Positions 15,293 through 42,930 of a stretch of 62,863 nt of DNA are shown in pieces. The stretch's first letter is position 1; each line of letters opens with the position of its first letter. The position numbers and the translations under genes were made by a program. Source of the DNA: Acidobacteriota bacterium (GTDB lineage Bacteria; Actinomycetota; Acidimicrobiia; Acidimicrobiales; CADCSY01); the NCBI GenBank assembly GCA_019510095.1, contig JAEKLB010000022.1, forward strand, positions 1 to 62,863, written 5' to 3'. The notes below the pieces were generated by a model that searched no databases, had not been told where the DNA came from, and was given only the letters and a program-made list of their open reading frames with translations.

Positions 15293-16600
15293 TCAGCGGA
15301 GTAGGAACTTCTCCAGGTTGTCGCGCATGATCAGCTTCTGGTCCTGTTCGCTGAAGGCCGACAACTGGGCCTCGACGTACTTCGAGGGGTACGCCAGCCC
15401 CTCGCCGTGGGGGAAGTCCGAGCCGAACACGATCGGCTCGATGCCGACCTCGGCCACCACCCGCTGGACGTTCTCCTCCGGGTACGGCGCCACGACGAAG
15501 TGCTGCCGGAAGATCTCGGACGGACGCCGGTCGAGCCGCCCATTCTCGGCCCACTTGGCCTTGCGCCCCATCAGGAAGGCGTGATCCATCTTGCGCATGG
15601 TGTACGGGAGCCACACGGTGCCCATCTCCGAGAGGCAGACCTTCATGTTCGGGAAGCGCCCGAAGAAGTTGTGCAGGATCAAGCCCGAGGTGAGCTCCAT
15701 GGCCGGGCGGTCACCCCAGTACATCATCCACTGGAAGGCGTCGAAGTCGCCGAACACGGCCTCGGGGTCCTCTGACCAGTCGGCGCCGTACTTCTGGTAA
15801 TCGGTGCCGCCCAGGTGAACGGCCAGCCGGATGTCGGCCTCGTTGCAGATCGACCAGAAGCGGTCGAAGGCCGGATCCGCCAATGACCGTCCGCCGAACG
15901 GGTTGTCGCGACCGCCGTGGGCATGGCCCGACTTCGTCTGGATCATCGTCGCGCCGTCGGCGATGACGGTCTCCAGCTCCTGCACGGCCAGGACGGGGTC
16001 GGCCAAGGCGATGTAGGGCGGCACCCACATCCGGTTCTGGGCGACGTAGCCGACCTCTTCCTTGATCCACCGGTTGAAGGCGCGGATGTTGGCGTACAGC
16101 GCCTCGATGTTGTCGGCGAACTCGTACTCGATGTCGTGGGCCGCGGCGGGGAACATCAACGCCTTGTCGATTCCCTGCTCGTCCATCAGCGCCAAGCGCA
16201 GGTCGCGGTTCCCGTAGGCCTCGGAGCGGTGCCGCCACTCGTCGATGAACGCCTTTCGCTCCTCTTCGCTGAGGTCCCGCAAGGGGTTCAGGCGGTTCAG
16301 CTTCACGCCCGGAACGTCACGCCGGATCAGGTCCGAGTCCTGGGGGTCGAACGCGACCGGCGCGCCCAACATCTTGGTGAGCTCCTCTTGCGAGAACGTC
16401 ACCTGGCCGGACGCGGAGCTCAGGAACTTGGACGGCTGCCCTGCGAACAGTTGCATCCGTCGCCCGTCCGGCGTCAGGACGTACCGAATGGCCAGGTGGA
16501 GCTTGGACGGATCGATGTAGCGCTCGAAGCAGTCCGGGGGTTCGGTGAAGTGATTGTCGGCGTCGTTGATGCTGTAGGGAAGGTCGCTCGTCACAGCCAT
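15293..16600 (-). CDS. Amidohydrolase family 2 protein
   Basis: DADNH metal motif, AVHLGG, SEMGTVWLP, FGSDFPHGEG. Start trimmed to ATG 16600 behind GAGGAGG. Confidence 0.9.
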   Translation of the reverse strand: MAVTSDLPYSINDADNHFTEPPDCFERYIDPSKLHLAIRYVLTPDGRRMQLFAGQPSKFLSSASGQVTFSQEELTKMLGAPVAFDPQDSDLIRRDVPGVKLNRLNPLRDLSEEERKAFIDEWRHRSEAYGNRDLRLALMDEQGIDKALMFPAAAHDIEYEFADNIEALYANIRAFNRWIKEEVGYVAQNRMWVPPYIALADPVLAVQELETVIADGATMIQTKSGHAHGGRDNPFGGRSLADPAFDRFWSICNEADIRLAVHLGGTDYQKYGADWSEDPEAVFGDFDAFQWMMYWGDRPAMELTSGLILHNFFGRFPNMKVCLSEMGTVWLPYTMRKMDHAFLMGRKAKWAENGRLDRRPSEIFRQHFVVAPYPEENVQRVVAEVGIEPIVFGSDFPHGEGLAYPSKYVEAQLSAFSEQDQKLIMRDNLEKFLLR

Positions 16601-16925
16601 GTCGTCCTCCTCGACGTCGCTCCGGCCATCATCGCGCCGCCCGTCGGCACCTCGCATGGCGCCCGTCAGCGCTGACCACACAGCGAGGAGAAGCGACGAC
16701 GCGGCGGGGAGACTTGTAGGACGGCCGTAACCGAGTGTTGTTCGTGCCGTTTTGGATCCGACCACGTCGTCTGGATAGGTTTGTCGCATTCAGGGTGATT
16801 CGCCCATCAGTGACGAACGCCGTCGGTCAGCACGCTGACCAGACGACCGCATCCGACCCGACGACATCTGCGCACCTTCCGCATCACGTGCGGCCGAGCG
16901 GCGCCCGGACCCCAAGGACTGGATC

Positions 16926-17723
16926 ATGCGCCTGGACATCGTCATTCCCGCTCACAACGAGCAGGACCGCATCGCCCGAACGTTGCGGGCCTACAGCGCC
17001 GTCCTGACCGACCCGTCTGTGCGGTTCCATGTCGCGCTCGACCAGTGCACCGATCGCACCGTGGACGTCGTCCGGGAGCAGGCCGTCCACGACGAGCGCA
17101 TCGTCGTGCACGAGTACCCGAAGCTGGGGAAGGGCGGTGTCGTCATGGAGACCTTCCGCCGTTGCGGCGGCGACGTGATCGGCTTCGTCGACGCCGACTG
17201 CTCCACGCCGCCAGCCGAGTACCTCCGCCTCGTCGACGTGGTCGCGGCCGGTGCCGATGTCGCGATCGCCTCTCGTTGGCACCCATCGGCGGTGGTGCCC
17301 CGGCCACGCTCACGAGCGCGCCGCGCCACCAGCTCGGTGTTCCCGTTGCTGGTGGCGGCGCTGTTCCGGCTCGGCGTTCGCGACACGCAGTGTGGCGCCA
17401 AGGTGGCGCGTCGAGCGGTGCTCGACACCGCCCTGCCGCTCCTGTCGTCACGGGACTTCCTGTTCGACGTCGACCTGCTCGTCGTCGCCAGCCACTTCGG
17501 GTACCGGGTCATCGAGGTGCCGACCGTCTGGGTCGACCGCGACGGCTCCCACTTGCACCCATTCGCCGACGCGCGGCGGATGGCAGCGTCGTCATTTCGC
17601 CTGTGGCTCCACCACCGCGTGCTGCCGTTGCCGGCTCCAGGGCAGCGCGAGGCGGTCGTCGACGCCGAGGTCATCGACCTCCGGGACCATGACGCCGAGG
17701 AGGTGCGCGATGCCGTCCGCTGA
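16926..17723 (+). CDS. Glycosyltransferase family 2, polyprenol-phosphate glycosyltransferase (DPM/DPG synthase-like)
   Basis: IVIPAHNEQ, GKGG, FVDADCST, ASR, DTQCGAK, FDVDLL. Confidence 0.88.
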   Translation: MRLDIVIPAHNEQDRIARTLRAYSAVLTDPSVRFHVALDQCTDRTVDVVREQAVHDERIVVHEYPKLGKGGVVMETFRRCGGDVIGFVDADCSTPPAEYLRLVDVVAAGADVAIASRWHPSAVVPRPRSRARRATSSVFPLLVAALFRLGVRDTQCGAKVARRAVLDTALPLLSSRDFLFDVDLLVVASHFGYRVIEVPTVWVDRDGSHLHPFADARRMAASSFRLWLHHRVLPLPAPGQREAVVDAEVIDLRDHDAEEVRDAVR

Positions 17724-30273: not shown

Positions 30274-31206
30274 GTGCACGAGGGTGGGCGTCGGGCGGTC
30301 GTGGCGGCCCTGCTCGCCAACGCCGGCATCGCGTTGGCCAAGCTCGTTGGCTTCGTGCTCACCGGAGCCGCGTCCCTGTTGGCCGAGGCCGTGCACTCGC
30401 TGGCCGACACCAGCAACCAGGCCCTGCTCCTCCTCGGGAGCACGAGGGCCAAGCGGTCGGCCACTCGATCGCACCCGTTCGGCTACGGGCGGGAGACCTA
30501 CTTCTGGGCCTTCGTCGTGGCGCTCGTGCTGTTCCTGCTCGGTGGTGTGTTCGCCATCGTCGAGGGCATCGAGAAGTTGCGCCATCCGCACGAGGTCGAG
30601 GGCCTCGGCGTGGCCGTTGGCATCCTGCTGGTGGCCGTCACCCTCGAGAGCTTCTCGCTGCGGACCGCGATCCACGAGGCCAACCAGGTGCGCGGCGACG
30701 ACTCGTGGTGGGCCTTCATCCGCCGGTCGAAGCGGCCGGACCTGCCGATCGTGCTCCTCGAGGACGTCGGTGCCGAGGTCGGCCTGGCCTTCGCGCTCAC
30801 CGGTGTGTTGCTGGCGCGGATCACCGACAACCCGCGCTGGGACGCGGCCGGCAGCCTGGCCATCGGCGTGCTCCTCGTGGTCGTGGCGGTCATCCTGGTC
30901 ATCGAGATGAAGAGCCTGCTGATTGGCGAGTCGGCGACCCTCGCCGACGAGGAGGCCATCGGGTCGGCCATCGAGTCGGCCCCGGGTGTCCGGCGGTTGA
31001 TCCACCTCCGGACCGAGCATCTCGGGCCCGACGAGCTGCTGGTGGTGGCCAAGATCGAGCTCGACGCCACCCTGACGGTGGCCGAGGTCGCCGATCGCAT
31101 CAACGGCGCCGAGGCGGCGCTGCGGGCGGCGGTACCGGCCGCCCGGCTGGTCTTCCTGGAGCCGGACGTCGCCCGGCCCGAGCTCGACCGCCCCGAGCCG
31201 GCCTAG
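30274..31206 (+). CDS. Cation diffusion facilitator (CDF) family transporter
   Basis: EAVHSLADTSNQ, HPFGYGRE, LLEDVGA, WDAAGS, C-terminal dimerisation domain. Confidence 0.9.
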   Translation: MHEGGRRAVVAALLANAGIALAKLVGFVLTGAASLLAEAVHSLADTSNQALLLLGSTRAKRSATRSHPFGYGRETYFWAFVVALVLFLLGGVFAIVEGIEKLRHPHEVEGLGVAVGILLVAVTLESFSLRTAIHEANQVRGDDSWWAFIRRSKRPDLPIVLLEDVGAEVGLAFALTGVLLARITDNPRWDAAGSLAIGVLLVVVAVILVIEMKSLLIGESATLADEEAIGSAIESAPGVRRLIHLRTEHLGPDELLVVAKIELDATLTVAEVADRINGAEAALRAAVPAARLVFLEPDVARPELDRPEPA

Positions 31207-33293
31207 CGCGACGGCTGCGGCTGGAGCCCGGCCTTGACCACGTCGAGCAGGGCAGCGGCCGTCAGCGGATGGTGAAAGTGGAAGCCCTGCGCCCGACGCC
31301 CGCCGAGGGCCCGCAGCGCCGCCGCTTGCGCCGCGTTCTCGACGCCTTCGGCTACGACGTCGAGGCCGAGCGCCTCGGCCATGGTGAACATGGCCCGCAG
31401 GAGGGCGACGTCATTGGTGTCGAAGGGCAGCCCGGCGACGAAGCTCTGGTCGATCTTCAGGCCGTCGACCGGGAGCCGTTTGAGCGCCGACAGCGATGAG
31501 TACCCGGTGCCGAAGTCGTCGAGAACGATGGCGAGCCCGGCATCGCGAAGCTTGGTGAGACCCACGATGCAGGCATCGATGTCGGCGGTGAATGCGGTCT
31601 CGGTGATCTCGAGTGCCACGCGGCGAGGATCGACGCCACTGGCCCGGAGCGCATCGGTGACGGTGCCAGGGAAGCGAGGTGAGGCGAGCTGCCTGGTCGA
31701 GACGTTGACCGACAAGGCCAGCTCGGGGACGACCGAGTGCCACTGGGCCAGCTGGTGGAACGACTCGTGCAGCACCCACGCGCCGATGGGCACGATCAGC
31801 TCCGTCTCCTCGGCGATCTTCATGAAGTCCTCGGGCGCGAGGGTTCCGCGGAGGGGATGGTCCCACCGGAGCAGCGCCTCGACGCCGATGATCTGGCGGT
31901 CCTCGAGGTTCACGACCGGCTGGTAGCGCAGCGAGAACTCGTTGTGGTCGGTGGCACGCCGCAGATCGACGGTGATGGCCGCGCGCTCCTCGGCGATGTG
32001 CCGCAGATGCTCGGTGAAGAGCTCGGTTCGCATGCGGCCGCTGTCCTTGGCGTGCAGCAGGGCGAGGTCGGCGTCCCGGAGCAATGACGCCGCCGAGGAG
32101 TCCCGCGTGGCGACGGCGATGCCCATGCTGGCGCCCACTCGGAGCTCGACGCCACCGACGGAGCAGGGAAGGTCGATCGCCGATCGCAGGCGATCGCCCA
32201 AGTCGCCGACGAAGTCACCGCCACCGACGGCGAGGACGACGAACTCGTCGCCGCCGAAGCGGCCCACGGTGTCCGTCGGACGGACACTGCCGGCGAGGCG
32301 CTCGGCGATGCAGACGAGGAGCTCGTCGCCGCCGTCGTGGCCGTACCTGCTGTTGATCGCCTTGAACCCATCGAGGTCGAGGAACACCACCGCCACGGTT
32401 GCCTTCGACCGGTCAGCAGTCACCAGCGCCTCTTGCAGGCGCTCCATGAACAGGGTGCGATTCGGCAGCCTGGTCAGCGGATCGTGCTCGGCCTGGAACG
32501 CCAGCTGCTCCTCGTAGGCCTTTCGGTCGGTGAGGTCGGTGAGCATGGCCAGATGGCCGATCAGCGTGCCGGCGCTGTCCATGAGGGGGTTCATCTTGAC
32601 CAAGACGTGAAGCTCGGTCCCATCGGCCCGGATGGTGACCAGCTCGCGCTGGAAGCGCTTGATGCTGGTCGGCGCGAATCGCCGGTTGGGATCGCTCTGG
32701 AAGGGGAAGGCGGGCGCACCGACGAGCGCCTCGACGGTGCTGCCGAGCATGTCGGCCAAGCGCCGGTTGGCGAAGGTGATGGTGCGGTCGAGGTCGATGG
32801 TGACGATGCCTTCCTCGGCCGTCTCCACGATCTGGCGGTAGCGCTCCTCGCTCAGGCGGACCTGGCGGATCGCTTCGTCGCGCTCGTTCTGGGCGGCGTG
32901 CCAGTCCGTGAGGTCGGCGACGGTGGCGAAGTAGCCGTCGTCGCGGGGCAGCCTCGAGATGCGGAAGATCACGTAGACCTCGCTGCCGTCATGGCGCACG
33001 AGGTGGCCGACCCGGCGAACGACATGCCCGTTGTCGGTCTGCTCCCGCATGGTGGCAATCGCGGGCTGGAGGTCGTTGGCGATGAAGTCGGCCAAGGGGC
33101 GGCCGATCAGGCTCTCGGGACCCTCGACGCCCAGGACCTCGGCCATGGCCAGGTTCGCCATGGTGATCTGCTGGTCGGTCCCGAACGCCCAGATGCCCTG
33201 CTGGGCGTGCTCGACGATCTGCCGGTACGACGCCTCGTGCCCATCGAAGATGCCGAGGTCGGCGACGGTGTCCTGACCTCCATCCCTTGCCAT
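31203..33293 (-). CDS. PAS-PAS-GGDEF-EAL c-di-GMP turnover protein
   Basis: Two PAS-like segments, HDPLTRLPNR, RFGGDEF, EALLRW, DDFGTGYSSL, AEGVE. Alternative start 33332. Confidence 0.92.
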   Translation of the reverse strand: MARDGGQDTVADLGIFDGHEASYRQIVEHAQQGIWAFGTDQQITMANLAMAEVLGVEGPESLIGRPLADFIANDLQPAIATMREQTDNGHVVRRVGHLVRHDGSEVYVIFRISRLPRDDGYFATVADLTDWHAAQNERDEAIRQVRLSEERYRQIVETAEEGIVTIDLDRTITFANRRLADMLGSTVEALVGAPAFPFQSDPNRRFAPTSIKRFQRELVTIRADGTELHVLVKMNPLMDSAGTLIGHLAMLTDLTDRKAYEEQLAFQAEHDPLTRLPNRTLFMERLQEALVTADRSKATVAVVFLDLDGFKAINSRYGHDGGDELLVCIAERLAGSVRPTDTVGRFGGDEFVVLAVGGGDFVGDLGDRLRSAIDLPCSVGGVELRVGASMGIAVATRDSSAASLLRDADLALLHAKDSGRMRTELFTEHLRHIAEERAAITVDLRRATDHNEFSLRYQPVVNLEDRQIIGVEALLRWDHPLRGTLAPEDFMKIAEETELIVPIGAWVLHESFHQLAQWHSVVPELALSVNVSTRQLASPRFPGTVTDALRASGVDPRRVALEITETAFTADIDACIVGLTKLRDAGLAIVLDDFGTGYSSLSALKRLPVDGLKIDQSFVAGLPFDTNDVALLRAMFTMAEALGLDVVAEGVENAAQAAALRALGGRRAQGFHFHHPLTAAALLDVVKAGLQPQPSR

Positions 33294-33456
33294 TGCGCCT
33301 CCGGCCCGCATGTTGTCGCAGATCATCGGCACGCGCCAGGACTACGTGTAGCGACCACAGGGAGTGGCCCGGGCAGCGCCAGCCTAGGATCGACGTATCG
33401 CCATCGGGCGGTGGGTGAGCCGGGAAGCCTGGTCGGCACGAGTCCAAGGAGGACGT

Positions 33457-34137
33457 GTGCCTGACGCCGCTCATGACCTGAAGCCCGAGATCGATTCGCT
33501 GGATCACCTGCGGGCGGGTCTTCGCATCTCCCGGGTGTCGATCATCTGGACCTTGGCGTCGAGCTCACTCGGGCTGGTGATCGGCCTGCGGGCGGGGAGC
33601 CTCGTCTTGGTGGGCTTCGCCCTCACCGGGCTGCTCGACGTGGTCGGGTCGAGCGCGCTCGTGCTCCACTTCCGGCACGCACTCCGCCACGAGACGTTCT
33701 CCGAGCGTCGCGAGCAGCTGGCATTGCGGGTGGTCATCGGCGGCCTGGCCGTCATCGGCCTGGCCGTGGCCGCCCAGAGTGCACGCGAGCTCATCGCCAG
33801 CGGACCAGCGCATTCGGCGCCGAGCGGGGTCGTGCTGGCTGCGCTGTCAGTGGTGGTGCTCGCCGTTCTGGCCGATCGCAAGCGTCGCGTCGCCCGTCTC
33901 ATTCCCAGCCAGGCCTTGCTGGCCGACGGCTGGCTGTCGGGCGTGGGCACCCTCCTCGCTGCCGTCACTGTCGCCGGGACGGGGGCGACGTCGCTGTTCG
34001 GCTGGTGGTGGGTCGATCCCGTCGCCGCGGGTGTGGTGGCGTGTGGGGCGGTCGCCGTCGCAGTCGTGCTGGCGAAGGGTTCGGATGGACCGGACCAACC
34101 CGGCGATCAATCGGGCGTCGGCCCGATCAGCCGGTAG
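33457..34137 (+). CDS. Small CDF-like cation transporter (no C-terminal domain)
   Basis: SLVLVGFALTGLLD, ALLADG, WWWVDPVAA; GTG behind AAGGAGG. Confidence 0.75.
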   Translation: MPDAAHDLKPEIDSLDHLRAGLRISRVSIIWTLASSSLGLVIGLRAGSLVLVGFALTGLLDVVGSSALVLHFRHALRHETFSERREQLALRVVIGGLAVIGLAVAAQSARELIASGPAHSAPSGVVLAALSVVVLAVLADRKRRVARLIPSQALLADGWLSGVGTLLAAVTVAGTGATSLFGWWWVDPVAAGVVACGAVAVAVVLAKGSDGPDQPGDQSGVGPISR

Positions 34138-34805
34138 CCGAGCCCCGGTTCGCTCATGATCGAAGGACGGTCCGGCCCGCTCCCGAGCTTCTTCCGGAGC
34201 TGGGTGATGTGGACGCGGAGCGACTCCGTTTTGCGCAGATCGGTGGTTCCCCAGACCGTGTCGAGCAATGTCCGGTGTGGCAGGAGCCGCCCAGGCCTTA
34301 GCGCGAGGCATTTCAGGAGGGCGAACTCCTTAGCGGTGAGGGTGAGCGGGGCGCCGTCGACCGCCGCGCCATGAGCTGCGGCATCGATCGTCAGGTCGCC
34401 GACCGTGATGAGCCGGGTCTCGCCCACGATCGTCGCCAGCGTCTGACGGTGGCGGAGAGCCACCCGGATACGGGCCAACAGCTCAGGGATCGAGAAGGGC
34501 TTGGTGATGTAGTCGTCGGCGCCCTCGTCGAGCGCGGCCACCTTGCGGGCGTCGTCACCCGCCGCACTCAGCACGAGGATCGGGTTTACGAACCAGCGCC
34601 GTAGCTCGCGACACACCTCGAGGCCGTCGATGTCAGGCAGGCCGAGATCAAGGATGATCAGATCGGGTTCGTCGGTCGAGGCCCGATCGAGCGCGGTTCG
34701 CCCGTCGGCGGCGACGTCCACCACGTACTCGCGAGCTCGGAGGGCAGTCGTGACGATCTCGGCCATCGACCGGTCGTCCTCGACGTAGAGGATCGAGCTA
34801 CGCAA
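34107..34805 (-). CDS. OmpR-family response regulator, KdpE-like
   Basis: YVEDD, IILDLGLPDIDG, DYITKPF, C-terminal wHTH (LRVHITQLRKKL...EPGLGYR). TTG start overlapping the kinase stop is inferred. Confidence 0.9.
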   Translation of the reverse strand: MRSSILYVEDDRSMAEIVTTALRAREYVVDVAADGRTALDRASTDEPDLIILDLGLPDIDGLEVCRELRRWFVNPILVLSAAGDDARKVAALDEGADDYITKPFSIPELLARIRVALRHRQTLATIVGETRLITVGDLTIDAAAHGAAVDGAPLTLTAKEFALLKCLALRPGRLLPHRTLLDTVWGTTDLRKTESLRVHITQLRKKLGSGPDRPSIMSEPGLGYRLIGPTPD

Positions 34806-35835
34806 GCGGAAGCACCACCCGGAAGGCCGACCCGCAGGGCTCACGGTTGCCGGCGTCGATCGTGCCGCCGTGGGCTTCGACGACGGCCTTGCAGATCGCC
34901 AGGCCCACGCCGCTCGTGCCGGGATTGGCGCCGCTGCGGAACGCGTCGAACACCACCGGCAGCTCTGCCGGTGTCATCCCAGGTCCCTCGTCGAGGATCT
35001 CGATCTGCAGCTGGTCGTCCCTCGCCGCCGCGACGATCTGGATGCCCGCGCCGGGTGGCGTGTGCCTCGCCGCGTTCTCGACCAGGTTGGTCACCACCTG
35101 CTCGAGCAGCGCGTGGTCGGCCCTGACGAGCGGGAGCCCATCGGCGATGCTCACCTCGATCCGGATGTCGTGGAGCGGCGCCTGCAGCCGGGTCGTACAC
35201 AGCTCGATCAGCTCGCCGATGTCGACGGCCTGCCGGTTCGGCACGAGCATGTCGGCTTCGATCCGGGCCAGGCTGAGGAGGTTGCCCACCAGCCGCTCGA
35301 GTCGCTCCGCTTCTCGCCGGGCGGTCGTGGCAAGCCCCCGGCGGGTTGCCTGCGTATGGAGCTCCGTGTCCTCCAACTCGGACAAGGCCGCCTGGATGCT
35401 GGCGAGGGGGGTTCGCAGGTCATGCGACACGGCCCGGAGTAAGGCGGCGTGGTGGCGTTCGACTCGCCGCAGCGCCTCGACCCGACTGGTGACGAGCATG
35501 CCGATCAGGAAGACCACTACGAAGAAGACGACGAGGGCGACCACGTCCTGCGCCACCGATACCCGAGGTGACCCGATCGGTTCGAGCAGCAGCGAGAACG
35601 AGACGGTCGCGACGACGGCCACGGCGGCGGCAGCATGCCGCCCGCCGACGACCGCCGTCGCGACCACGGGGACAACGAGGATGAGGGCCTGGGCCGGATG
35701 CCCGAGCCTGGTGTTGACCAACCCGGCCACCACCAGGATGACGCCGGTCGCAGTGGCTCCGCTGACTGCGGCAGCGGTCGACGACATCCCCCGCAAGAAG
35801 ATGCGGGAGCGGTCCGAGTCGCCGCTTCTAGCCAT
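34798..35835 (-). CDS. Sensor histidine kinase, minimal KdpD-like (4-TM DUF4118-like + HisKA + HATPase)
   Basis: SHDLRTPL, NLVENAARH, DEGPG, GVGLAIC; N-terminal four hydrophobic helices only. Confidence 0.88.
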   Translation of the reverse strand: MARSGDSDRSRIFLRGMSSTAAAVSGATATGVILVVAGLVNTRLGHPAQALILVVPVVATAVVGGRHAAAAVAVVATVSFSLLLEPIGSPRVSVAQDVVALVVFFVVVFLIGMLVTSRVEALRRVERHHAALLRAVSHDLRTPLASIQAALSELEDTELHTQATRRGLATTARREAERLERLVGNLLSLARIEADMLVPNRQAVDIGELIELCTTRLQAPLHDIRIEVSIADGLPLVRADHALLEQVVTNLVENAARHTPPGAGIQIVAAARDDQLQIEILDEGPGMTPAELPVVFDAFRSGANPGTSGVGLAICKAVVEAHGGTIDAGNREPCGSAFRVVLPLA

Positions 35836-35847
35836 AAGCGCCTGACG

Positions 35848-36189
35848 TTAGATGGCTGCCTCTCCGGACTCGCCGGTGCGAACTCGCATGAGCGCGTCGA
35901 GCGGCAGCGACCAGATCTTCCCGTCGCCGATCTTGCCGGTGCGGGCCGAGTCGGAGACGACGAGCATTACTTTCTCGGCCTCCGCCGACTCGACGATGAT
36001 GTCGAGTCGGACCTTGGGGACGAAGTCGATCGTGTACTCGGAGCCGCGGAACGTCTCGGTCTTGCCGCCTTGGCGTCCGTAGCCCTGGACCTCGCTGACG
36101 GTGAGGCCGAGAACGCCGGCGGCTCGCAGTGCTTCCTTCACCTCCTCGAGCTTGTGGGGCTTGATGATGGCGGTGATGAGATGGGGCAT
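35848..36189 (-). CDS. glnK: Nitrogen regulatory protein P-II
   Basis: AIIKPHKL, T-loop GYGRQGGKTETFRGSEY (Tyr51 equivalent kept), PKVRL, TGKIGDGKI, RVRTGE; amt linkage. Confidence 0.95.
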   Translation of the reverse strand: MPHLITAIIKPHKLEEVKEALRAAGVLGLTVSEVQGYGRQGGKTETFRGSEYTIDFVPKVRLDIIVESAEAEKVMLVVSDSARTGKIGDGKIWSLPLDALMRVRTGESGEAAI

Positions 36190-36494
36190 CAGGTTCCTTC
36201 GTGGGGGTTGAGGCCGACCTCGAGGAGGAAGCCCCGTGCGCGAATGGTGTGAATGGTCAGGCCGAGCGGGCGCATCCGGCGGCGGAGCCGGTGTACCAGG
36301 TTGTTGAGCGACCCGTCGGCGGCGGTGCCGTCGGGCCAGAGGGTGGCGGCGAGATCCTCGCGAGGGACGACCTCGCCCGGTTGGGCCAGCAGAGACCGCA
36401 AGGCGAGCTCCTCCAGCGGGCTCACTGCCACCCAGGCGCCGTGATAGCGCAGCAACCCGTGATCATCGAGCTCGGGAGCTGGGGCGTCCATCAC
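36189..36494 (-). CDS. Stand-alone OmpR/PhoB-type winged-helix DNA-binding domain protein
   Basis: SPLEELALRSLLAQPGEVVPREDL...LW...SLNNLVHRLRRRM...IHTIRARGFL; no receiver domain; coupled to both neighbours. Confidence 0.8.
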   Translation of the reverse strand: MMDAPAPELDDHGLLRYHGAWVAVSPLEELALRSLLAQPGEVVPREDLAATLWPDGTAADGSLNNLVHRLRRRMRPLGLTIHTIRARGFLLEVGLNPHEGT

Positions 36495-36495
36495 G

Positions 36496-38064
36496 TCAGA
36501 CCGACGAGTCGATCCTGTCGGAGGTGGGCGGGATCGGCGCCCGACCCGGCAGGCCGGCCGGCGTCATGTACGTCATGCCCATACCGAACTCGACGTGGTA
36601 GGCGGGCGTGCCGTGCTCGTGGATGTCGAGGCCTTCGAGCTCGATGTCCTGGGACACTCGCAGGCCCCATTCGCCGGGGATGGCCTTGATGGCGAACATC
36701 ACGATGGCAGCGAGGCCCCCGACGACGACCAGGCACGACAGGCTGCCGATCGCTTGGGAGACGAGCTGGTCGGTGCCGCCGCCGTAGAACAGGCCGTTGA
36801 CGCCATAGCCGCCGGTGGCGAACAGACCCACGCTGAGCGTGCCCCAGACGCCGGCGAGCATGTGCACCGGTACTGCGCCGATCGGGTCGTCGATGCGGAG
36901 GTGCTCCAGCGCGTCGATCCCGAGCGGCACGACGATGCCGGCGATGGCCCCGATCCACACTGCTCCGGCTGGCGACACCCAATAGCACGGGGCGGTGATG
37001 GCGACCAGGCCGCCGAGGAAGCCGTTGAGCGACATGCCCAGGTCCCACTTCTTTGAGCGGGGGTAGACGAACAGGACGGCGATGAGGCCGCCGGCGCATG
37101 CTGCCAGCGTGGTGTTGGCGGCCACCCGGCCGATGCCCTCGAAGTCCATACCCGACAGGGTCGAGCCGGGGTTGAACCCATACCAACCGAACCAGAGGAT
37201 CACCGCGCCGATCGACGCCATGGTGAGGTCGTGCGGCGGGGTCGGGCCACCGCCGTCGCGCTTGAACTTGCGGCCGAGGCGGGGGCCGAGGGCGATGGCG
37301 CCCATGAGAGCGATGGTGCCGCCAACGGTGTGCACGACGGTCGAGCCGGCGAAGTCACGGAAGAACGTGTCGGGGCTCAGGCTGTGGAACCAGCCCATGG
37401 TCGTGGCCAGCCAGCCGCCCGGCCCCCACACCCAGTGCCCGAAGATCGGATAGAAGAAGCCCGAGACGCAGGTCGAGTAGAGGATGTCGCCCTTGAAGCT
37501 GGTGCGGCCGACCATGGCGCCCGACGTGATGGTCGAGGCGGTGTCGGCGAAGGCGAACTGGAACAGGAAGAACGCCAGGAACGCCACACCGGTGTCGGGC
37601 CCGAGCCCGGCGTAGTCGTAGGTCGACGGGATCCCGTGCAGGAAGAAGTAGGAGTGGCCGATGAGCCCGTTGCCCAGCCCGAACTGGAAGGCGAAGCCGA
37701 ACGCCCAGTAGAGGATGCCGCAGAGGCAGGTGTCGAACACGCACTCCATGAGCACGTTCACCGTTTCCCGGGAGCGGGCGACGCCCGCTTCGAGGGCCAT
37801 GAAGCCGGCCTGCATGAAGAAGACCAGGAAGGCAGTCACCAGCACCCACACCGTGTTGATGGCGCTGACCTGATGGGCGAGCTGCTGGGGAATCGACTCC
37901 TTCGTCTGGGCCCCTGCTGGGGACTCGAAGAGCCAGAAGAAGCCGCGCACCGCCGCCAACACCGTGGCGATGCCGATCATCTTGCCGGCCAGGACCGTGG
38001 CGAAGAGCTTCCGCGTCTCCCACTGCTTGAACTGGCTGAGTTTCCGTCGCATGCCGAGGACCAT
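36496..38064 (-). CDS. amt: Ammonium transporter (Amt) with N-terminal extension
   Basis: FFMQAGF, FQFAFA, DFAGSTVVH, WFGWYGFN, NGFLGGLVAIT, DDPIGAVPVH. Alternative start 38052. Confidence 0.95.
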   Translation of the reverse strand: MVLGMRRKLSQFKQWETRKLFATVLAGKMIGIATVLAAVRGFFWLFESPAGAQTKESIPQQLAHQVSAINTVWVLVTAFLVFFMQAGFMALEAGVARSRETVNVLMECVFDTCLCGILYWAFGFAFQFGLGNGLIGHSYFFLHGIPSTYDYAGLGPDTGVAFLAFFLFQFAFADTASTITSGAMVGRTSFKGDILYSTCVSGFFYPIFGHWVWGPGGWLATTMGWFHSLSPDTFFRDFAGSTVVHTVGGTIALMGAIALGPRLGRKFKRDGGGPTPPHDLTMASIGAVILWFGWYGFNPGSTLSGMDFEGIGRVAANTTLAACAGGLIAVLFVYPRSKKWDLGMSLNGFLGGLVAITAPCYWVSPAGAVWIGAIAGIVVPLGIDALEHLRIDDPIGAVPVHMLAGVWGTLSVGLFATGGYGVNGLFYGGGTDQLVSQAIGSLSCLVVVGGLAAIVMFAIKAIPGEWGLRVSQDIELEGLDIHEHGTPAYHVEFGMGMTYMTPAGLPGRAPIPPTSDRIDSSV

Positions 38065-38114
38065 AAGGAAGGAGCGTTAAGCAAACATTCGGTGAAGATG
38101 GCCAATCGACGTCG

Positions 38115-38136
38115 AGTTCCTGACCACTGTCTGACG
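38115..38136 (-). promoter_or_regulatory. Two 11-bp direct-repeat units (CGTCAGACAGT GGTCAGGAACT), candidate OmpR/GlnR-type box upstream of amt
   Basis: Read on the minus strand; the same NNTCAG core and 11-nt period occur upstream of the second amt. Confidence 0.5.
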
Positions 38137-38140
38137 AAGG

Positions 38141-40867
38141 TCAGGGAGTGGTTGCCGCGGCGACCGGCGCATAGGTCCGTCGGCCGAACCACGATCGGCG
38201 GGTCGTCACCCCACCGCAGAGGAAGCGCCGCACGGCCTCCTGGGCGTCGTCGTCGAGCTTGTTCCCGTCGGCGTCGACCAGCTCGAAGCGGTCGTCGGCG
38301 AGGGCATCGGTGGCCACGATGGTGGCGGCGACCACCTCGACATGGGCCGCGGCGAACGCGGTGGCGATGACGTGCAGCAGCCCGGGCTTGTCGGCCGCCG
38401 TCACCTCGCAGACGGTGTGCCACGGGGACGACGCGTTGTCGAAGGCAATCGTCACGTCGGCGAGGAGCGGGCTCTCCAACGGCTGGTCGAACGCAGCGGC
38501 GACGTCGCGCTCGAGCCCGACACGGTCGGGTGCGATCGCCGCTCGCACGAGAAACGACTCAAGGGCGATGCGGTCGGGCCACGTGGCCACCACCGCCTCC
38601 ACCACGTCGAGGTCGTGGTCGGCGAGGACACCCGTCACCACGGCCAGCAGGCCGTGCCGGTCGCGGGCGGCGACATCGACGTACCACGTGTCGGGTTCGC
38701 CGTTCGGGCCGACCCGGACGCGGGCCTCGCGGCCGTGCGGTGGGGGATTGAGGAGCTTGGCGTGGCGGGCCATTGCCGAGGGCTCCTGGCGGATCACGTA
38801 GGGCCGGGGGGCACGGGCGAGGCGGTCGCGTACGGCCTCGTCGTCGCTCGCCAAGGCAATTGCCTCCGTGCGGCGGCGCCCGATGAGGTTGCGGGCCTCC
38901 TCGCCGGTCAGCTGGTCATGGGCGAGCACCTCCTGAACGAGCCGGTGCAGCTCGCGCAGCCGAGTGAGCTCCCAGGTCGGGCGGTCGCCGTTAGTCAAGG
39001 CCGACAGGACGTAGAGGGCGCGTGCCCGCTCGGGTGTGTCGAGGTGTGACGCCAGCTGGGTGACGGCCTCCTCGCTGAACGCCCCGGCACGCAGGGCGGC
39101 AGCCCACGGCAGGTGCCGGTCGTCGATGAGCGAGCCGATCTCGGCTTCGGCCTCGGTGCCCACGCCCAGCCGCCGCACCACCGCCCGGGCCGTGTCGCCC
39201 GGCGCCGGTTCGTGCTCGAGGGCGTCGACCAGCAGCAGCGCGAGGACGAGCCAGTCGGGATGCAGCAGGCGTTCGGCCTCGATGGCGACGGGGGCACCGG
39301 CGTCGAGCCGCCGGAGTCGCTCGAGGGCGGGGAAGCGGTACGACTCGAGCTGGTCGATCGCCATCGACCCGGAGCGTCGGGTCTCGAGCGCCCGGGCGAG
39401 ATCGGGAGCAGCGGCGGCGAGAACACCGGTGGTGTCGAGGAACCGCCACGATCGGCCGTTGCCCCGCTCGATCAGGTCGAGCAGGTCGTCGAGGGCGTCA
39501 CGCCGCCAGCGGAGGGCCGATTCCGGAAGACCAGTCAGCCATTCGACAAGTTCCCGGCCTGGCTCTCGGCGGCCGACTGCGACCGCGGCCTGGAGCGCCA
39601 GCTCCAGGCTGGCGGACTCCGGTGGGCGGGCAGCCAGATCGACCATGTCGTCGGTGACCCCCAGCCAGCCGCCGGGCGGCATGACGTCGGTGACGTCGAC
39701 CTGGGCCCGGCGGGCGGCATTCAGCCGCGTGTAGCGGAGCTTGAGGATCTGGGGTGTGGCGAGCGTGGTCACCAGCACGACGAGCAGCAGCGCGGCATAG
39801 AGGTTGTCGTCGAGCACGCCGTTGGAGAGGCCGATGGTGGCGAAGATCAGGCCGACCTCGCCGCGCGGGAGCATGCCGATGCCGATGAGCAGCTTGTCGC
39901 CAGGGCTGCCGGCGGCGCCAAGTGGTGACACGAGCTTGCCGGCGACCGCGGCCAGCAGGAGGAGCGCCGCATCGCGCAGCACGGTGGCGTGGCCGAAGGC
40001 GCCGATCTGGGCATCGATGCCGATCTGGAGGAAGAAGACCGGGATGAAGAGGTGGCCGACGGGCGCCAGCTCGCGGCGGATCCGGTCGGACTGGTCGCTG
40101 CGGGTCAGGGCGAGCCCGGCGACGAAGGCGCCCACGATGGGGGCCAGCTTGGCGGCGTCGGCCACCCGGGCGAAGGCGAGGGTGAAGGCCAGCGCCAGGG
40201 CGACCATGGTGCCGGTCGAGCGGGAGAGCCGGGCAACCAGGGCGAAGAGGGGCCCGCTCAGCCGCAGGCCGACGGCGCCCCCGACGACCAGGAAGGCGAC
40301 GGCGACGCCGACGATGCCGGCGACCGACAGGGCCGAGACCGAACCCTCGGTGACGAGTCGCACGACGACGGTGAGCACGACGAGGCCCATGACGTCGTCG
40401 GCCACCGCGGCGCCGAGCACGATCCTCGCCTCGGTGGTGGCCAGGGCGCGGAGGTCGCCGAACACGCGAGCAGTGATGCCCACGCTGGTCGCCGTGAGGG
40501 CGGCGCCGACGAACAGCGATGTCTTGAAGTCGTCGCCGATGAGCTCCATGGCCCCGATGCCGAGCACCATCGGGCAGATCACGCCGACCGTCGCCACCAG
40601 CAACGAGGCGCGTCCGACCTTGCTCAGCTCGCCGAGATCCATCTCCATGCCGACCTCGAGCAGCAGGAGGATCACACCGATCTCGCCGAGGGTGCGCAGC
40701 ACCTCGTCGTGGTGTCCGACCAGGCCGAGCATCGAGGGACCGACCAGCACGCCGGCGACGATCTCGCCGACCACGGCCGGCACGCCGACGCGCTCGGCCA
40801 GCTCGGCCGCGACCTTGGCGGCGACGAGCACGATGAGGATGTCGGTGAGAACGGTGGTGATGTCCAT
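38141..40867 (-). CDS. Cation:proton antiporter (CPA2-like) fused to a degenerate GlnD-like HD region and two ACT domains
   Basis: Antiporter motifs GEIGVILLL, ATSVGIT, AVADDVMG, GMLPRGEVG in about aa 1-378; then LALLLVDALE (HD position degenerate) and ACT-like AARDRHGLL and AADKPGLL. Confidence 0.85.
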   Translation of the reverse strand: MDITTVLTDILIVLVAAKVAAELAERVGVPAVVGEIVAGVLVGPSMLGLVGHHDEVLRTLGEIGVILLLLEVGMEMDLGELSKVGRASLLVATVGVICPMVLGIGAMELIGDDFKTSLFVGAALTATSVGITARVFGDLRALATTEARIVLGAAVADDVMGLVVLTVVVRLVTEGSVSALSVAGIVGVAVAFLVVGGAVGLRLSGPLFALVARLSRSTGTMVALALAFTLAFARVADAAKLAPIVGAFVAGLALTRSDQSDRIRRELAPVGHLFIPVFFLQIGIDAQIGAFGHATVLRDAALLLLAAVAGKLVSPLGAAGSPGDKLLIGIGMLPRGEVGLIFATIGLSNGVLDDNLYAALLLVVLVTTLATPQILKLRYTRLNAARRAQVDVTDVMPPGGWLGVTDDMVDLAARPPESASLELALQAAVAVGRREPGRELVEWLTGLPESALRWRRDALDDLLDLIERGNGRSWRFLDTTGVLAAAAPDLARALETRRSGSMAIDQLESYRFPALERLRRLDAGAPVAIEAERLLHPDWLVLALLLVDALEHEPAPGDTARAVVRRLGVGTEAEAEIGSLIDDRHLPWAAALRAGAFSEEAVTQLASHLDTPERARALYVLSALTNGDRPTWELTRLRELHRLVQEVLAHDQLTGEEARNLIGRRRTEAIALASDDEAVRDRLARAPRPYVIRQEPSAMARHAKLLNPPPHGREARVRVGPNGEPDTWYVDVAARDRHGLLAVVTGVLADHDLDVVEAVVATWPDRIALESFLVRAAIAPDRVGLERDVAAAFDQPLESPLLADVTIAFDNASSPWHTVCEVTAADKPGLLHVIATAFAAAHVEVVAATIVATDALADDRFELVDADGNKLDDDAQEAVRRFLCGGVTTRRSWFGRRTYAPVAAATTP

Positions 40868-40888
40868 GTCGTCCGTGTCTGGGACGCA

Positions 40889-40923
40889 GATCGGGCGGGT
40901 GCGGAGCCCGCACCCGCCCGATC
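40889..40923. terminator. Perfect 16-bp GC-rich stem-loop between amt and the antiporter fusion (terminator or mRNA-stabilising hairpin)
   Basis: GATCGGGCGGGTGCGG-AGC-CCGCACCCGCCCGATC; no U-tract. Confidence 0.6.
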
Positions 40924-40948
40924 GCGTGAGTCGGATGTGTCGGTGGTG

Positions 40949-42490
40949 CTAGAGCGAGACGGTCTCGTTGGTGGGGCTGCCGCCGGCGTGGGCGACGAGC
41001 ACGTCTGCTTCCATGAACTCCGGATAGGCAAGGGCGCCCATCTCGGGCATGTCCATGCCGGCGATCTCCATCTCGGCCGGCGGGCGGATGCCACCCTTCA
41101 TGACCGCGTTCTGGATCTTGAAGAAGGCATAGGCCACCCCGAGGATGACCGTCCAGATGACGACCGCGCCCAGTGCCTGAGCACCCAGCTGGCCGAGACC
41201 GGGATTCATGCCGTAGAAGATGCCGGTGACGCCCTTGGCGGCGGCCGAACCTTCCGTGGTGAGGTTCCAACCGGCGCCATAGTGGCCGTTCGAGAACAGG
41301 CCGATGCACAGGACGCCGAAGGTGCCGCACACGCCGTGCACCGCGATGGCGCCGACCGGATCATCGACGTGCAGCTTGGTGTCGATGAACACTGCGGCGA
41401 ACACCACGAGCACACCGGCGAGGGCACCGATCAGGGCAGCGGCCCACGGATCGACGAACGCGCACGGGGCCGTGATGGCGACGAGGCCGGCGAGCATGCC
41501 GTTCACCATCATCCCCGGATCGGGCTTGCCCCAGCGCCACATCACCCAGAACATCGCGGACGTTGCGCCGAAGGCGGCGGCGAGCGCGGTGTTGGTGGCG
41601 ACCATGGCGAACTGGATGTCGGTCGCCGCCAGGGTGGAGGCGGCGTTGAAGCCGAACCAACCGAACAGCAGGATGAAGCAGCCGAGCATGGCCATCGGGA
41701 TGTGGTGGCCGGGCAGTGTGTTCGAGGAGCCGTCGCGGTTGTACTTGCCGATGCGGGGCCCGAGCACGAGGGCGCCCGCCAAACCGGCGACGCCGCCCAC
41801 CGCGTGCACCACGCCGGAACCGGCGAAGTCCACGTAGCCGAGGCCGAGGTGCATGCTGTTGCCGACCTGGGCCAGCCAGCCGCCACCCCAGGTCCACGCG
41901 CCGAACAGCGGGTAGTACACGGCGCCACAGAACACGCCCCAGCCCACGAAGGCGTTCCACTTCCACCGCTCGGCCATGGCGCCGGTCGGGATCGTGGCCG
42001 TTGTGTCCATGAAGGCCACCATGTAGAGGAAGAAGCCGGCAACTGCCGCGCCACCGCTCTTGCCGATGTCGCCGAGGGCGAAGCCGCCCTTCCACAGGAA
42101 CACCCATTGGCCGGAGCCGATCAGGCTGCTGCCAACGGCGTGGTTGTAGCCGATCAACGAGGTCGAGTAGCCGCCGAACATGAAGGCGTAGCCGACGAGG
42201 AAGTAGCCGACGAAGCCCAGGCCGAAGATGGCGAAGTTCGTCGACACCACGTGGGCGGCGTGCTTGGCCCGGCAAAAGCCGGTTTCGACCAGCGCGAAAC
42301 CGGCCTGCATGAAGATGACGAGGACGGCGCCGATGACGACCCAGAGCAGGTTGGTCTGCGTGCCGAGCGTCTTGACCGCCTCGTCGACCGTCTTGACCGT
42401 GGGGGCATCGGACTGGGCGAAGGCGGTGCCCGACATGGCGAGGAGGGCGGTGGTACCGAGCCCGAAGGCGACGGCGAGCTTGCGGCGCAT
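40949..42490 (-). CDS. amt: Ammonium transporter (Amt), second paralog
   Basis: IFMQAGF, DFAGSGVVH, FGWFGFN, NGMLAGLVAIT, DDPVGAIAVH; signal-like N-terminus ending AFAQ; GAAGGAG RBS. Confidence 0.95.
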   Translation of the reverse strand: MRRKLAVAFGLGTTALLAMSGTAFAQSDAPTVKTVDEAVKTLGTQTNLLWVVIGAVLVIFMQAGFALVETGFCRAKHAAHVVSTNFAIFGLGFVGYFLVGYAFMFGGYSTSLIGYNHAVGSSLIGSGQWVFLWKGGFALGDIGKSGGAAVAGFFLYMVAFMDTTATIPTGAMAERWKWNAFVGWGVFCGAVYYPLFGAWTWGGGWLAQVGNSMHLGLGYVDFAGSGVVHAVGGVAGLAGALVLGPRIGKYNRDGSSNTLPGHHIPMAMLGCFILLFGWFGFNAASTLAATDIQFAMVATNTALAAAFGATSAMFWVMWRWGKPDPGMMVNGMLAGLVAITAPCAFVDPWAAALIGALAGVLVVFAAVFIDTKLHVDDPVGAIAVHGVCGTFGVLCIGLFSNGHYGAGWNLTTEGSAAAKGVTGIFYGMNPGLGQLGAQALGAVVIWTVILGVAYAFFKIQNAVMKGGIRPPAEMEIAGMDMPEMGALAYPEFMEADVLVAHAGGSPTNETVSL

Positions 42491-42657
42491 CAGCACGACT
42501 CCTTCCATCGGGCTGGCCGGGTGGCGGGACGACACATGGGCAGGTTCCTTTCAGGGGCCGGTAGCTGAACGCCGGGGCAGGGGTCTTTCTGACCTGTCCC
42601 TGAACGTAGGGACAGCCGATCACGGGTCTGTCTCCGGGTTGTAAAGGCTGCCGTTCC

Positions 42658-42690
42658 ACTTGATGACAGAAATCTGACGGGGGTCTGAAC
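42658..42690 (-). promoter_or_regulatory. Three 11-bp direct-repeat units (GTTCAGACCCC CGTCAGATTTC TGTCATCAAGT), candidate OmpR/GlnR-type box
   Basis: Minus strand; lies just upstream of a -10-like TACAAC (42638-42643). Confidence 0.5.
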
Positions 42691-42726: not shown

Positions 42727-42930
42727 ATGCCGGACCCTGCTCCCGAGATCGACCCGCGCCGCATCCGAATCGGTCTGGCCATCGTCACGATCGCCTTCGT
42801 CGTGGGCCTCGTGCTCCTGTTCGTGGTCGACGATCCCGTGGGCCGGGCGATGATGGCCGCCGTCAGCGTCGTGGCCCTCATACGCGGCGGCCTGCTGGTG
42901 CGGTCGATCCGGCGCGACCAGACCGCCTGA
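42727..42930 (+). CDS. Small two-TM hypothetical membrane protein
   Basis: Two hydrophobic helices, ATG start, 11 nt upstream of the MFS gene. Confidence 0.7.
   Translation: MPDPAPEIDPRRIRIGLAIVTIAFVVGLVLLFVVDDPVGRAMMAAVSVVALIRGGLLVRSIRRDQTA

Follow-up and report, generated by a model that had tools for sequence, protein, structure and literature searches.

The locus described here lies on the minus strand of a 62,863-nucleotide stretch of DNA (the window), which is contig C99 of a 2.95-Mb metagenome-assembled genome (MAG) of 70% G+C. It holds seven genes: two ammonium transporter genes (amt1 and amt2), a gene in which a CPA2 cation:proton antiporter is joined to the back half of GlnD (CPA2::GlnD', below the fusion), a gene for a short winged-helix protein (wHTH), the P-II gene glnK, and the genes of a minimal KdpD-like histidine kinase and an OmpR-family response regulator (below the pair). 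We consider it probable that these genes form a composite nitrogen (ammonium) island of Acidimicrobiales (Acidimicrobiia, Actinomycetota), in which two conserved modules lie adjacent and the KdpDE-derived pair controls the genes for ammonium uptake together with GlnR, GlnK and wHTH. The data behind this reading are the genes present, their domains, their conserved linkage, the enrichment of a repeat motif and the co-occurrence of this motif with the wHTH gene. Set against known systems, the locus fits best as a two-component system of KdpDE descent that is dedicated to amt-glnK and lies in a composite nitrogen island.

The linkage of the pair to amt is conserved among relatives. An amt gene was found within 3 kb of the kinase orthologue in 18/18 informative loci, an informative locus being one in which a full-length-similar orthologue could be inspected (L107, at a contig end, was left out and the window is not counted among the 18). 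The gene next to the pair is usually amt-glnK and can be divergent, convergent or co-directional. Synteny of kinase and regulator with amt-glnK, which a first-pass annotation of this DNA had proposed, was therefore found in every other informative locus. The commonest order is kinase-regulator-amt-glnK(-wHTH). It is represented by pair-amt-glnK in L121, L122 and L125, by pair-amt-glnK-wHTH with a divergent glnD in L124, and by the pair followed by amt-glnK-wHTH-glnD in L101. In L102 and L106 the order is pair-amt2-wHTH-glnK. The pair is divergent from glnK-amt in G009/L091, from amt1-fusion in G001/L090 and from fusion-amt1 in L068, and convergent with amt2-glnK-wHTH in G042/L092. Other arrangements are amt-pair-amt (L105), the pair with a CPA antiporter and two amt genes (L123), the pair between kdpFABC-kdpD and amt-glnK (L103), and amt1-fusion-kinase plus NhaA-kinase-regulator-glnK-regulator (L104); in L108, L109 and L111 amt lies at most 3 kb from the pair. 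A P-II gene accompanies about 13 of the 19 amt-linked loci; about 9 loci have wHTH and about 6 have the fusion. Since the same sets of genes are met again in relatives, the arrangement is not due to chance. Full-text literature searches found no paper on the combination of a DUF4118 kinase with an ammonium transporter; in the literature searched, the linkage of amt with the pair is undescribed. As a separate observation, the NhaA-kinase-regulator-P-II-second regulator row of L104 (7995-11873, minus strand) is convergent with an amt1-fusion-further kinase copy.

Kinase and regulator carry all catalytic motifs, and the acceptor Asp, the Ser/Thr and the Lys of the regulator were read from the sequence. 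Pfam detected only DUF4118, HisKA and HATPase_c in the kinase, which lacks the KdpD N-terminal domain (PF02702), Usp and GAF. Against the NCBIfam KdpD model it scored 151 bits (cut-off 1123) and matched positions 661-882 only, and the regulator scored 180 bits against KdpE (cut-off 325); both remain below all equivalog cut-offs. The kinase belongs to a family of over 2000 proteins, about 330-350 amino acids long and labelled 'KdpD' at JGI, in whose sequences an 'LPPxGxxR' loop is conserved. The pair thus resembles KdpD/KdpE of Escherichia coli and mycobacteria in its DUF4118 four-helix domain, its HisKA-HATPase part, its OmpR regulator and its position beside a high-affinity monovalent-cation uptake system. 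It differs from them by the missing N-terminal, Usp and GAF domains, by its scores, and by its partner, which is amt(-glnK) instead of kdpFABC. The true kdpDE is separate: the genome has its own kdpFABC-kdpDE on C112 (kdpB, kdpC, kdpD and an adjacent regulator) and, on C226, a second KdpD-N-domain kinase accompanied by a regulator of its own. No kdp gene is present in the window, and among the 19 amt-linked loci kdp is nearby in L103 alone. The first-pass annotation had envisaged that the pair could turn out to be unlinked from amt and to control a kdp operon elsewhere; instead, the linkage extends to all informative loci and a distinct kdpDE accompanies kdp on C112. Stand-alone membrane proteins consisting of DUF4118 only were also seen: those of 235 amino acids adjoin the short kinase in two metagenome loci (L101:4219-4926 and L103:6247-6954), and two others are encoded in the genome (C86:11059-11742 and C112:21029-21619), one of which adjoins the kdp operon.

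More distant pairs, with kinases of 38-44% identity, have different neighbours. None of the 15 loci of this sister group carries amt in its flanks, and in 7/8 checked the pair is divergent from an APC-family permease (L093, L097, L098, L110, L112, L113 and L116). The permease of L112, the only one compared with the PDB, proved to be KimA, a K+ transporter (6S3K, E 7e-123). In a maximum-likelihood tree, the distant pairs and the unchecked short-contig rows formed one clade with 98/97 support, and all 20 Amt-linked kinases fell outside it. These KimA-linked minimal KdpDE-like pairs, also from Acidimicrobiales, share with the Amt-linked ones the architecture, the organism class and the placing of sensor genes next to an importer of cations, but they form a separate clade and their partner imports K+, not NH4+. 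Some APC permeases of the sister clade carry an OB-fold tail.

A listing of open reading frames (ORFs), gene prediction from GC3, and scans with Pfam and NCBIfam together uphold seven co-oriented minus-strand genes. On this point the first-pass annotation was right, as it was on the tight junctions of the last five genes. Read from the sequence, these are a 1-nt gap between amt2 and wHTH, a TGATG overlap between wHTH and P-II, a 12-nt gap without Shine-Dalgarno sequence between P-II and kinase, and a TTG regulator start which overlaps the kinase stop (TTGCGTAG). The stop of amt2 and the start of glnK are 306 nt apart, with the wHTH gene in between. Two of the gene identities had to be revised, namely the limits of amt1 and an 'antiporter/ACT' gene, which is really the CPA2::GlnD' fusion (Table 1). 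A longer amt1 frame reaching about 42659, given by the same annotation, was rejected; it is a different frame and has no Pfam match. Two longer spacers remain, an 81-nt one between amt1 and the fusion with a strong hairpin inside, and an unstructured one of 76 nt between the fusion and amt2, which contains promoter-like boxes and looks like a promoter.

The locus is composed of module A (the gene of a small divergent membrane protein, then amt1, hairpin and CPA2::GlnD') joined to module B (amt2-wHTH-glnK-kinase-regulator). We distinguish two modules because the usual partner of the fusion is amt1, because the pair occurs in only 2/80 fusion loci, and because the run of module B downstream of the fusion was seen in the window alone among the loci mapped (80 related loci, tblastn of the seven proteins). 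Module B is a tightly packed, probably leaderless operon; amt2 itself probably has a leaderless start at 38052. In a soil metatranscriptome (run X5), two exact 151-nt records face each other over the amt2/wHTH junction (36327-36651), like one read pair, a weak hint that the host or a near-identical organism is transcribed in soil. Soil metatranscriptome contigs were rejected as proof of an operon: most match conserved P-II or Amt segments of other organisms, and two records are too few. An Rfam search gave no match at E <= 1 and a scan for consensus promoters and terminators gave nothing useful.

Module A is widespread across Acidimicrobiia, usually without the kinase. The amt1-fusion core is kept in the 80 loci; an Amt1-type gene is the partner of the fusion and usually lies directly upstream of it, a short wHTH gene is often near, and orthologues of the pair occur in two. 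The 67-amino-acid membrane protein gave tblastn matches in at least 25 related loci, where its gene is always directly upstream of amt1 and divergent from it. The true start of amt1 is likely the ATG at 42490, judging from the 'MRRKL' N-terminus with its signal peptide and from the preceding Shine-Dalgarno sequence GGAAGGAG. The upstream ORF that ends on this ATG has counterparts at the same place in L104 and L090, with different peptide sequences. The position of the hairpin after amt1 is kept in about 25 relatives while its stems differ in a compensating manner. It is the only one of its kind in the genome, has no U tract, and is likely a terminator, an attenuator or a stabiliser.

The C-terminal 460 residues of the fusion match positions 371-843 of the GlnD model TIGR01693, that is, an HD-like region followed by two ACT domains, the latter seen by Pfam and in the alignment to the GlnD of the same genome. 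The score is 97.5 bits (cut-off 519), and the nucleotidyltransferase and GlnD_UR_UTase domains are missing. When 64 fusion orthologues were aligned with the genome's own GlnD, the catalytic His-Asp of the HD domain fell on 'LLLVDALEH' in the fusion, in columns that are unconserved across the orthologues. Because these columns are unconserved, the tail is a catalytically degenerate, sensor-like pseudo-enzyme. The true GlnD is encoded on contig C29, distant from any amt or P-II gene. In its membrane domain the fusion matches Na_H_Exchanger with 214.9 bits and TIGR00932 with 175 (cut-off 238), and no KTN/RCK domain was detected by Pfam or NCBIfam. Its 220 relatives all come from Acidimicrobiia-type MAGs and are full length, with 43-74% identity; full-text literature searches found nothing on a GlnD-antiporter fusion.

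CPA2 antiporters of the Kef/YbaL type carry KTN/RCK tails. The fusion resembles them by its CPA2 membrane domain with a cytoplasmic regulatory tail, and differs by the origin of that tail, which is a GlnD-derived HD-like region with ACT-ACT, and by a substrate that is only putative. That a CPA2 antiporter can take NH4+ as substrate is exemplified by AmhT of Bacillus pseudofirmus, an NH4+/K+ efflux antiporter. In the fusion, the ACT domains of the GlnD'-type tail would let nitrogen status gate the exchange of a cation (K+ or NH4+) for H+. The first-pass annotation had taken the antiporter as part of the same system as the kinase, tying NH4+ to K+/proton balance. Only some of this holds: cation/proton antiporters (the fusion, NhaA or another CPA) do lie near the pair in about 7 loci, but the fusion itself belongs to the separate and far wider amt1-fusion module, in which the pair is usually missing.

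The P-II protein is of the GlnK type; its T-loop reads 'GGKTETFRGSEYTIDF', and the equivalents of Arg47 and Tyr51 are kept. Judged from the overlap of the two genes, wHTH is translationally coupled to glnK. We rejected the possibility that wHTH is a copy of the DNA-binding domain of the regulator, their similarity being weak. wHTH and P-II genes are paired repeatedly and in either order, in the window, in many relatives and in a second nitrogen locus of the genome (C18:18404-20869, minus strand), which encodes a 169-amino-acid wHTH-like protein with a receiver remnant, a P-II protein and an Amt 54% identical to amt1. P-II partner transcription factors are known in GlnK-AmtR of Corynebacterium, GlnK-TnrA of Bacillus and P-II-PipX-NtcA of cyanobacteria. 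By analogy with these systems, the recurrent pairing suggests that wHTH is a P-II-controlled DNA binder. As in them, the gene of a small DNA-binding protein is tightly paired with P-II; in contrast to them, wHTH has an OmpR-type winged-helix fold without receiver, and its contact with P-II is deduced from gene coupling.

Phased direct repeats GTCAG-N6-GTCAG are present upstream of both amt genes (Table 1). The form TCAG-N7-TCAG occurs four times in the window (1.55 expected), and three of the four lie on the coding strand upstream of one or the other amt gene. Among relatives, the strict GTCAG motif was found on the coding strand in 25/51 amt upstream regions and on the other strand in none, compared to 0.24 in shuffles. 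Two forms recur: a distal GTCAGA-N5-GTCAGA and a proximal copy overlapping a -10-like TA(C/G)GTT. The exact motif is absent at the amt locus of C18. A wider GTCAG nitrogen regulon was considered and rejected: the genome has 50 matches, of which few are placed shortly before a gene, and none of these adjoins a gene that we could tie to nitrogen metabolism. The motif is present in 17/23 loci with a wHTH gene and in 2/20 without (Fisher p 3.6e-5, a value which ignores shared ancestry), and among the kinase-linked loci it is found just where the short wHTH gene sits between amt2 and glnK (window, L102 and L106). Since the motif co-occurs with wHTH and not with the pair, wHTH, rather than the response regulator, is the best candidate for the binder of the GTCAG repeats at both amt promoters, and GlnK may control it.

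The genome also encodes a GlnR orthologue, an orphan atypical OmpR-type regulator (C80, about 16440-17119, plus strand). NCBIfam has no GlnR model, and identity was established with PDB entries 8HIH and 8HML; the best match is Mycobacterium tuberculosis GlnR (8HIH, E 3.8e-44). GlnR a/b sites follow gTnAc-n6-GaAAC with an 11-nt phase (PMC10235972). In the window the repeats keep the 11-nt phase with GTCAG as pentamer, only a degenerate CGAAT-n6-TTAAC is found proximal to amt2, and classic GlnR boxes (GTAAC-n6-GAAAC) are found at other amt2-type promoters of relatives. The locus is thus comparable to the actinobacterial amtB-glnK-glnD genes under GlnR (Streptomyces, Mycobacterium and Corynebacterium), with which it shares Amt, GlnK, a GlnD-derived gene, a GlnR in the genome and OmpR-type repeats in 11-nt phase at amt. 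It differs by its true glnD, which lies elsewhere, the GlnD-like part being a dead half on an antiporter, by the wHTH gene between amt and glnK, by the membrane two-component system, and by repeats of GTCAG instead of gTnAc/GaAAC.

Table 1. Genes and sequence features of the ammonium island, in window coordinates
Feature	Position	Strand	Basis and details
OmpR-family response regulator (receiver + wHTH), KdpE/MtrA-like	34107..34805 (TTG start)	-	Pfam Response_reg 4e-29, Trans_reg_C 3e-20
Histidine kinase, 345 aa, minimal KdpD-like	34798..35835	-	Pfam DUF4118 (four transmembrane helices) joined directly to HisKA-HATPase_c
GlnK-type P-II	35848..36189	-	Pfam P-II 3e-26; NCBIfam 131 bits
Receiver-less OmpR-type winged-helix protein (wHTH), 101 aa	36189..36494	-	Trans_reg_C 5.6e-10; best NCBIfam model PRK07239, matched at its wHTH end
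amt2, receptor-like 'cluster 2' Amt, signature QFECDTTS	36496..38064	-	Pfam 2.7e-113
GTCAG-N6-GTCAG phased direct repeat upstream of amt2	38120..38134	-	11-nt phase into degenerate GlnR-like box and -10 TATGGT
CPA2 cation:proton antiporter + GlnD back half, 908 aa	38141..40867	-	Pfam Na_H_Exchanger 2e-63, ACT; TIGR01693 positions 371-843
GC-rich hairpin between amt1 and fusion	40884..40929	-	-46.5 kcal/mol, z -6.3
amt1, Amt with Sec signal peptide, signature QFENIFTT	40949..42535	-	Pfam 1.8e-99, synteny, signature comparison
Upstream ORF, 15 codons	42490..42537	-	TGA stop overlaps likely amt1 ATG; own Shine-Dalgarno sequence
Two GTCAG-N6-GTCAG boxes upstream of amt1	42589..42688	-	Proximal 42589-42603 overlaps -10-like TACGTT; distal 42674-42688 runs to third half-site
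67-aa two-helix membrane protein gene	42727..42930	+	Divergent from amt1; tblastn

From these data we infer the signal sensed, the targets of the regulator, the contacts of wHTH with DNA and with GlnK, and the substrate of the antiporter, as follows. By analogy with KdpDE beside kdpFABC and with the KimA sister clade, the four-helix membrane domain of the kinase would sense NH4+, a cation resembling K+, or some membrane signal tightly coupled to it. The kinase would then set the phosphorylation of the OmpR-type regulator, which in its phosphorylated form would tune transcription of the adjoining ammonium-uptake genes. This local input would act on top of global control by GlnR and of GlnK, the latter gating Amt and possibly wHTH, while wHTH would bind the GTCAG repeats at both amt promoters.

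Several points weigh against this reading. We know of no experimental precedent for direct NH4+ sensing by a DUF4118 domain. A search for an autoregulation site gave no motif shared upstream of the kinase genes, save TGGCACGCT in three closely related loci. The pair is rare, being found in 17/401 genomes of the class at E <= 1e-55 (5 candidates scored per genome), which implies that ammonium control works without it in most relatives; full-length kinase orthologues were present in 2/32 genomes of the same family. The putative co-transcription is deduced from gene spacing and one possible read pair, which may be DNA carry-over. Furthermore, loci entered the set through sequence similarity and are not an exhaustive sample, and the association of motif and wHTH is uncorrected for shared ancestry.

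We next consider other ways in which these genes could work together. The first-pass annotation had described the locus as a split version of an Amt-kinase sensor. Formulated in full, amt2 (non-transporting or dual) and GlnK docking would signal within the membrane to a sensor-less kinase, like Ks-Amt5 on separate chains or like UhpC-UhpB. Ks-Amt5 (an Amt-histidine kinase) and Sd-Amt1 (Amt-HAMP-GGDEF) are indeed similar to the locus, since an Amt of the same class, as judged by best PDB match, and a histidine kinase are found in one unit (PMC5764959, PMC11152129). They differ in that the kinase of the locus is separate and has its own transmembrane bundle, that Cys replaces Asn45, and that its partner Amts are not always of the receptor type; in addition, the fused receptors work without GlnK, which the locus has. 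The best PDB matches of amt2 are Sd-Amt1 (2e-70) and Ks-Amt5 (4e-68). These matches were discarded as a peculiarity of amt2: amt1 matches the same sensor structures best, for both proteins the transporters Af-Amt1 and AmtB are poorer matches than Sd-Amt1 and Ks-Amt5, and this similarity is a property of the clade. All three Amts (amt1, amt2 and that of C18) retain the Amt core (vestibule Trp, Phe gate and twin His; W/F/F/H/H).

The ligand positions were examined with the N1/N2 receptor signature QX6EX15NX2D[F/T]X54-60TX2[S/T] (PMC11152129), read at Sd-Amt1 positions Q22/F25/E29/N45/D48/F49/T104/S107. amt2 has six of the seven residues (Q, E, D, T, T and S). All amt2-type orthologues keep 6/7, including both buried acidic residues and the exit Asn, 8/11 amt2-type genes of the set adjoin the pair, and two more kinase-adjacent Amts have the exact signature of Sd-Amt1. 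Together with a kinase that has no sensor domain of its own and with amt linkage throughout the kinase clade, this favours a split receptor. Against it, the key ligand Asn45 is Cys in all 11 amt2-type proteins, and partner Amts are of several subtypes: one is of the amt1 type, which reads QFENIFTT and has Ile in place of Asp48, and those of L101 and L125 lack Glu29, Asp48 and Thr104. 'Cluster 2' comprises about 30% of all Amts, true transporters included (PMC11152129), and as the three Amts of the genome are all cluster-2-like, at least one must transport. Pfam shows amt2 to be a single-domain protein with no fused cytoplasmic transducer, and a search among relatives turned up no fusion of an Amt with a kinase of this clade. 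Long open frames that suggested such fusions (G421, G403 and others) were rejected: in L105 the two genes occupy different reading frames, and the long frame is a high-GC artefact. Finally, the locus set is biased by the way it was collected. The varying subtype of the partner argues for transcriptional control of amt over a fixed Amt-kinase complex, and on these sequence comparisons a pair that regulates the adjoining amt operon fits better than a fixed sensing complex. We thus regard the split receptor as fairly unlikely, and that part of the first-pass annotation was not sustained.

An extended version, a multi-part sensor, is in our judgement unlikely. In it, amt2 (with its N1/N2-like pocket and conserved Cys) and GlnK would jointly gate the sensor-less kinase while GlnK would also sequester and release a wHTH reading GTCAG. 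External NH4+ and internal 2-oxoglutarate/ATP status would thereby act on shared promoters by way of two OmpR-type binders, one phosphorylated and the other not.

In proteobacteria, NtrB is an established case of a histidine kinase controlled by P-II. Similarly, GlnK could bind the catalytic domain of the kinase and switch it between kinase and phosphatase by 2-oxoglutarate, ATP/ADP and modification, so that the pair would report intracellular nitrogen. The position of glnK 12 nt upstream of the kinase, with translational coupling in the window, and the presence of P-II in about 13 of the 19 linked loci are consistent with this NtrB-like mode. However, in the commonest order the kinase comes first and glnK last, with regulator and amt between them, and no P-II gene is present in the flanks of L105, L111 and L123. 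The architecture also differs from NtrB/NtrC (a soluble PAS kinase with a sigma-54 AAA+ regulator), as the kinase is membrane-bound and lacks PAS and the regulator is OmpR-type, not NtrC-type. We consider this mode distinctly unlikely.

Lastly, it is very improbable that the pair is an ordinary potassium/osmotic KdpDE paralogue placed beside nitrogen genes by accident and controlling kdp, kimA or other cation genes elsewhere: its best family matches are KdpD/KdpE, in line with the JGI label, the L103 pair adjoins kdpFABC-kdpD, and the sister clade is tied to KimA, but an amt linkage kept in 18/18 loci through rearrangements is incompatible with accident, the 0/15 sister-clade loci with amt in their flanks set the two groups apart, the genome holds a full kdpDE by kdpABC as well as the KdpD-N-domain kinase of C226 and its regulator, and the scores are far under the KdpD/KdpE cut-offs, so that this reading is already disfavoured.

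Signalling proteins of the GGDEF type were observed beyond amt loci. A Pfam-checked GGDEF-EAL protein is encoded at 31203-33332 of the window (minus strand) and another, read by eye, at C18:14897-17602 (minus strand), each 1-2 kb past the end of the respective amt locus. A PAS-GGDEF protein is encoded at L125:12642-14711, beyond that metagenome locus. This neighbourhood may be a coincidence.

Perception of external ammonium outside the NtrBC paradigm of proteobacteria and the GlnR paradigm of actinomycetes is poorly known, and the characterised dedicated ammonium receptors are only Amt fusions, from an anammox bacterium and from Shewanella. That a stripped-down KdpD/KdpE clade is repeatedly kept beside amt-glnK and a sister clade beside KimA K+ importers suggests that the four-helix KdpD module is a general sensor of K+-like cations which was re-tuned to NH4+. 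The island holds further parts that are undescribed or barely described, namely an antiporter with a dead GlnD half, a receiver-less wHTH coupled to P-II and a GTCAG direct-repeat operator. Acidimicrobiia are abundant in soils and waters, and their nitrogen control therefore matters for models of the nitrogen cycle.

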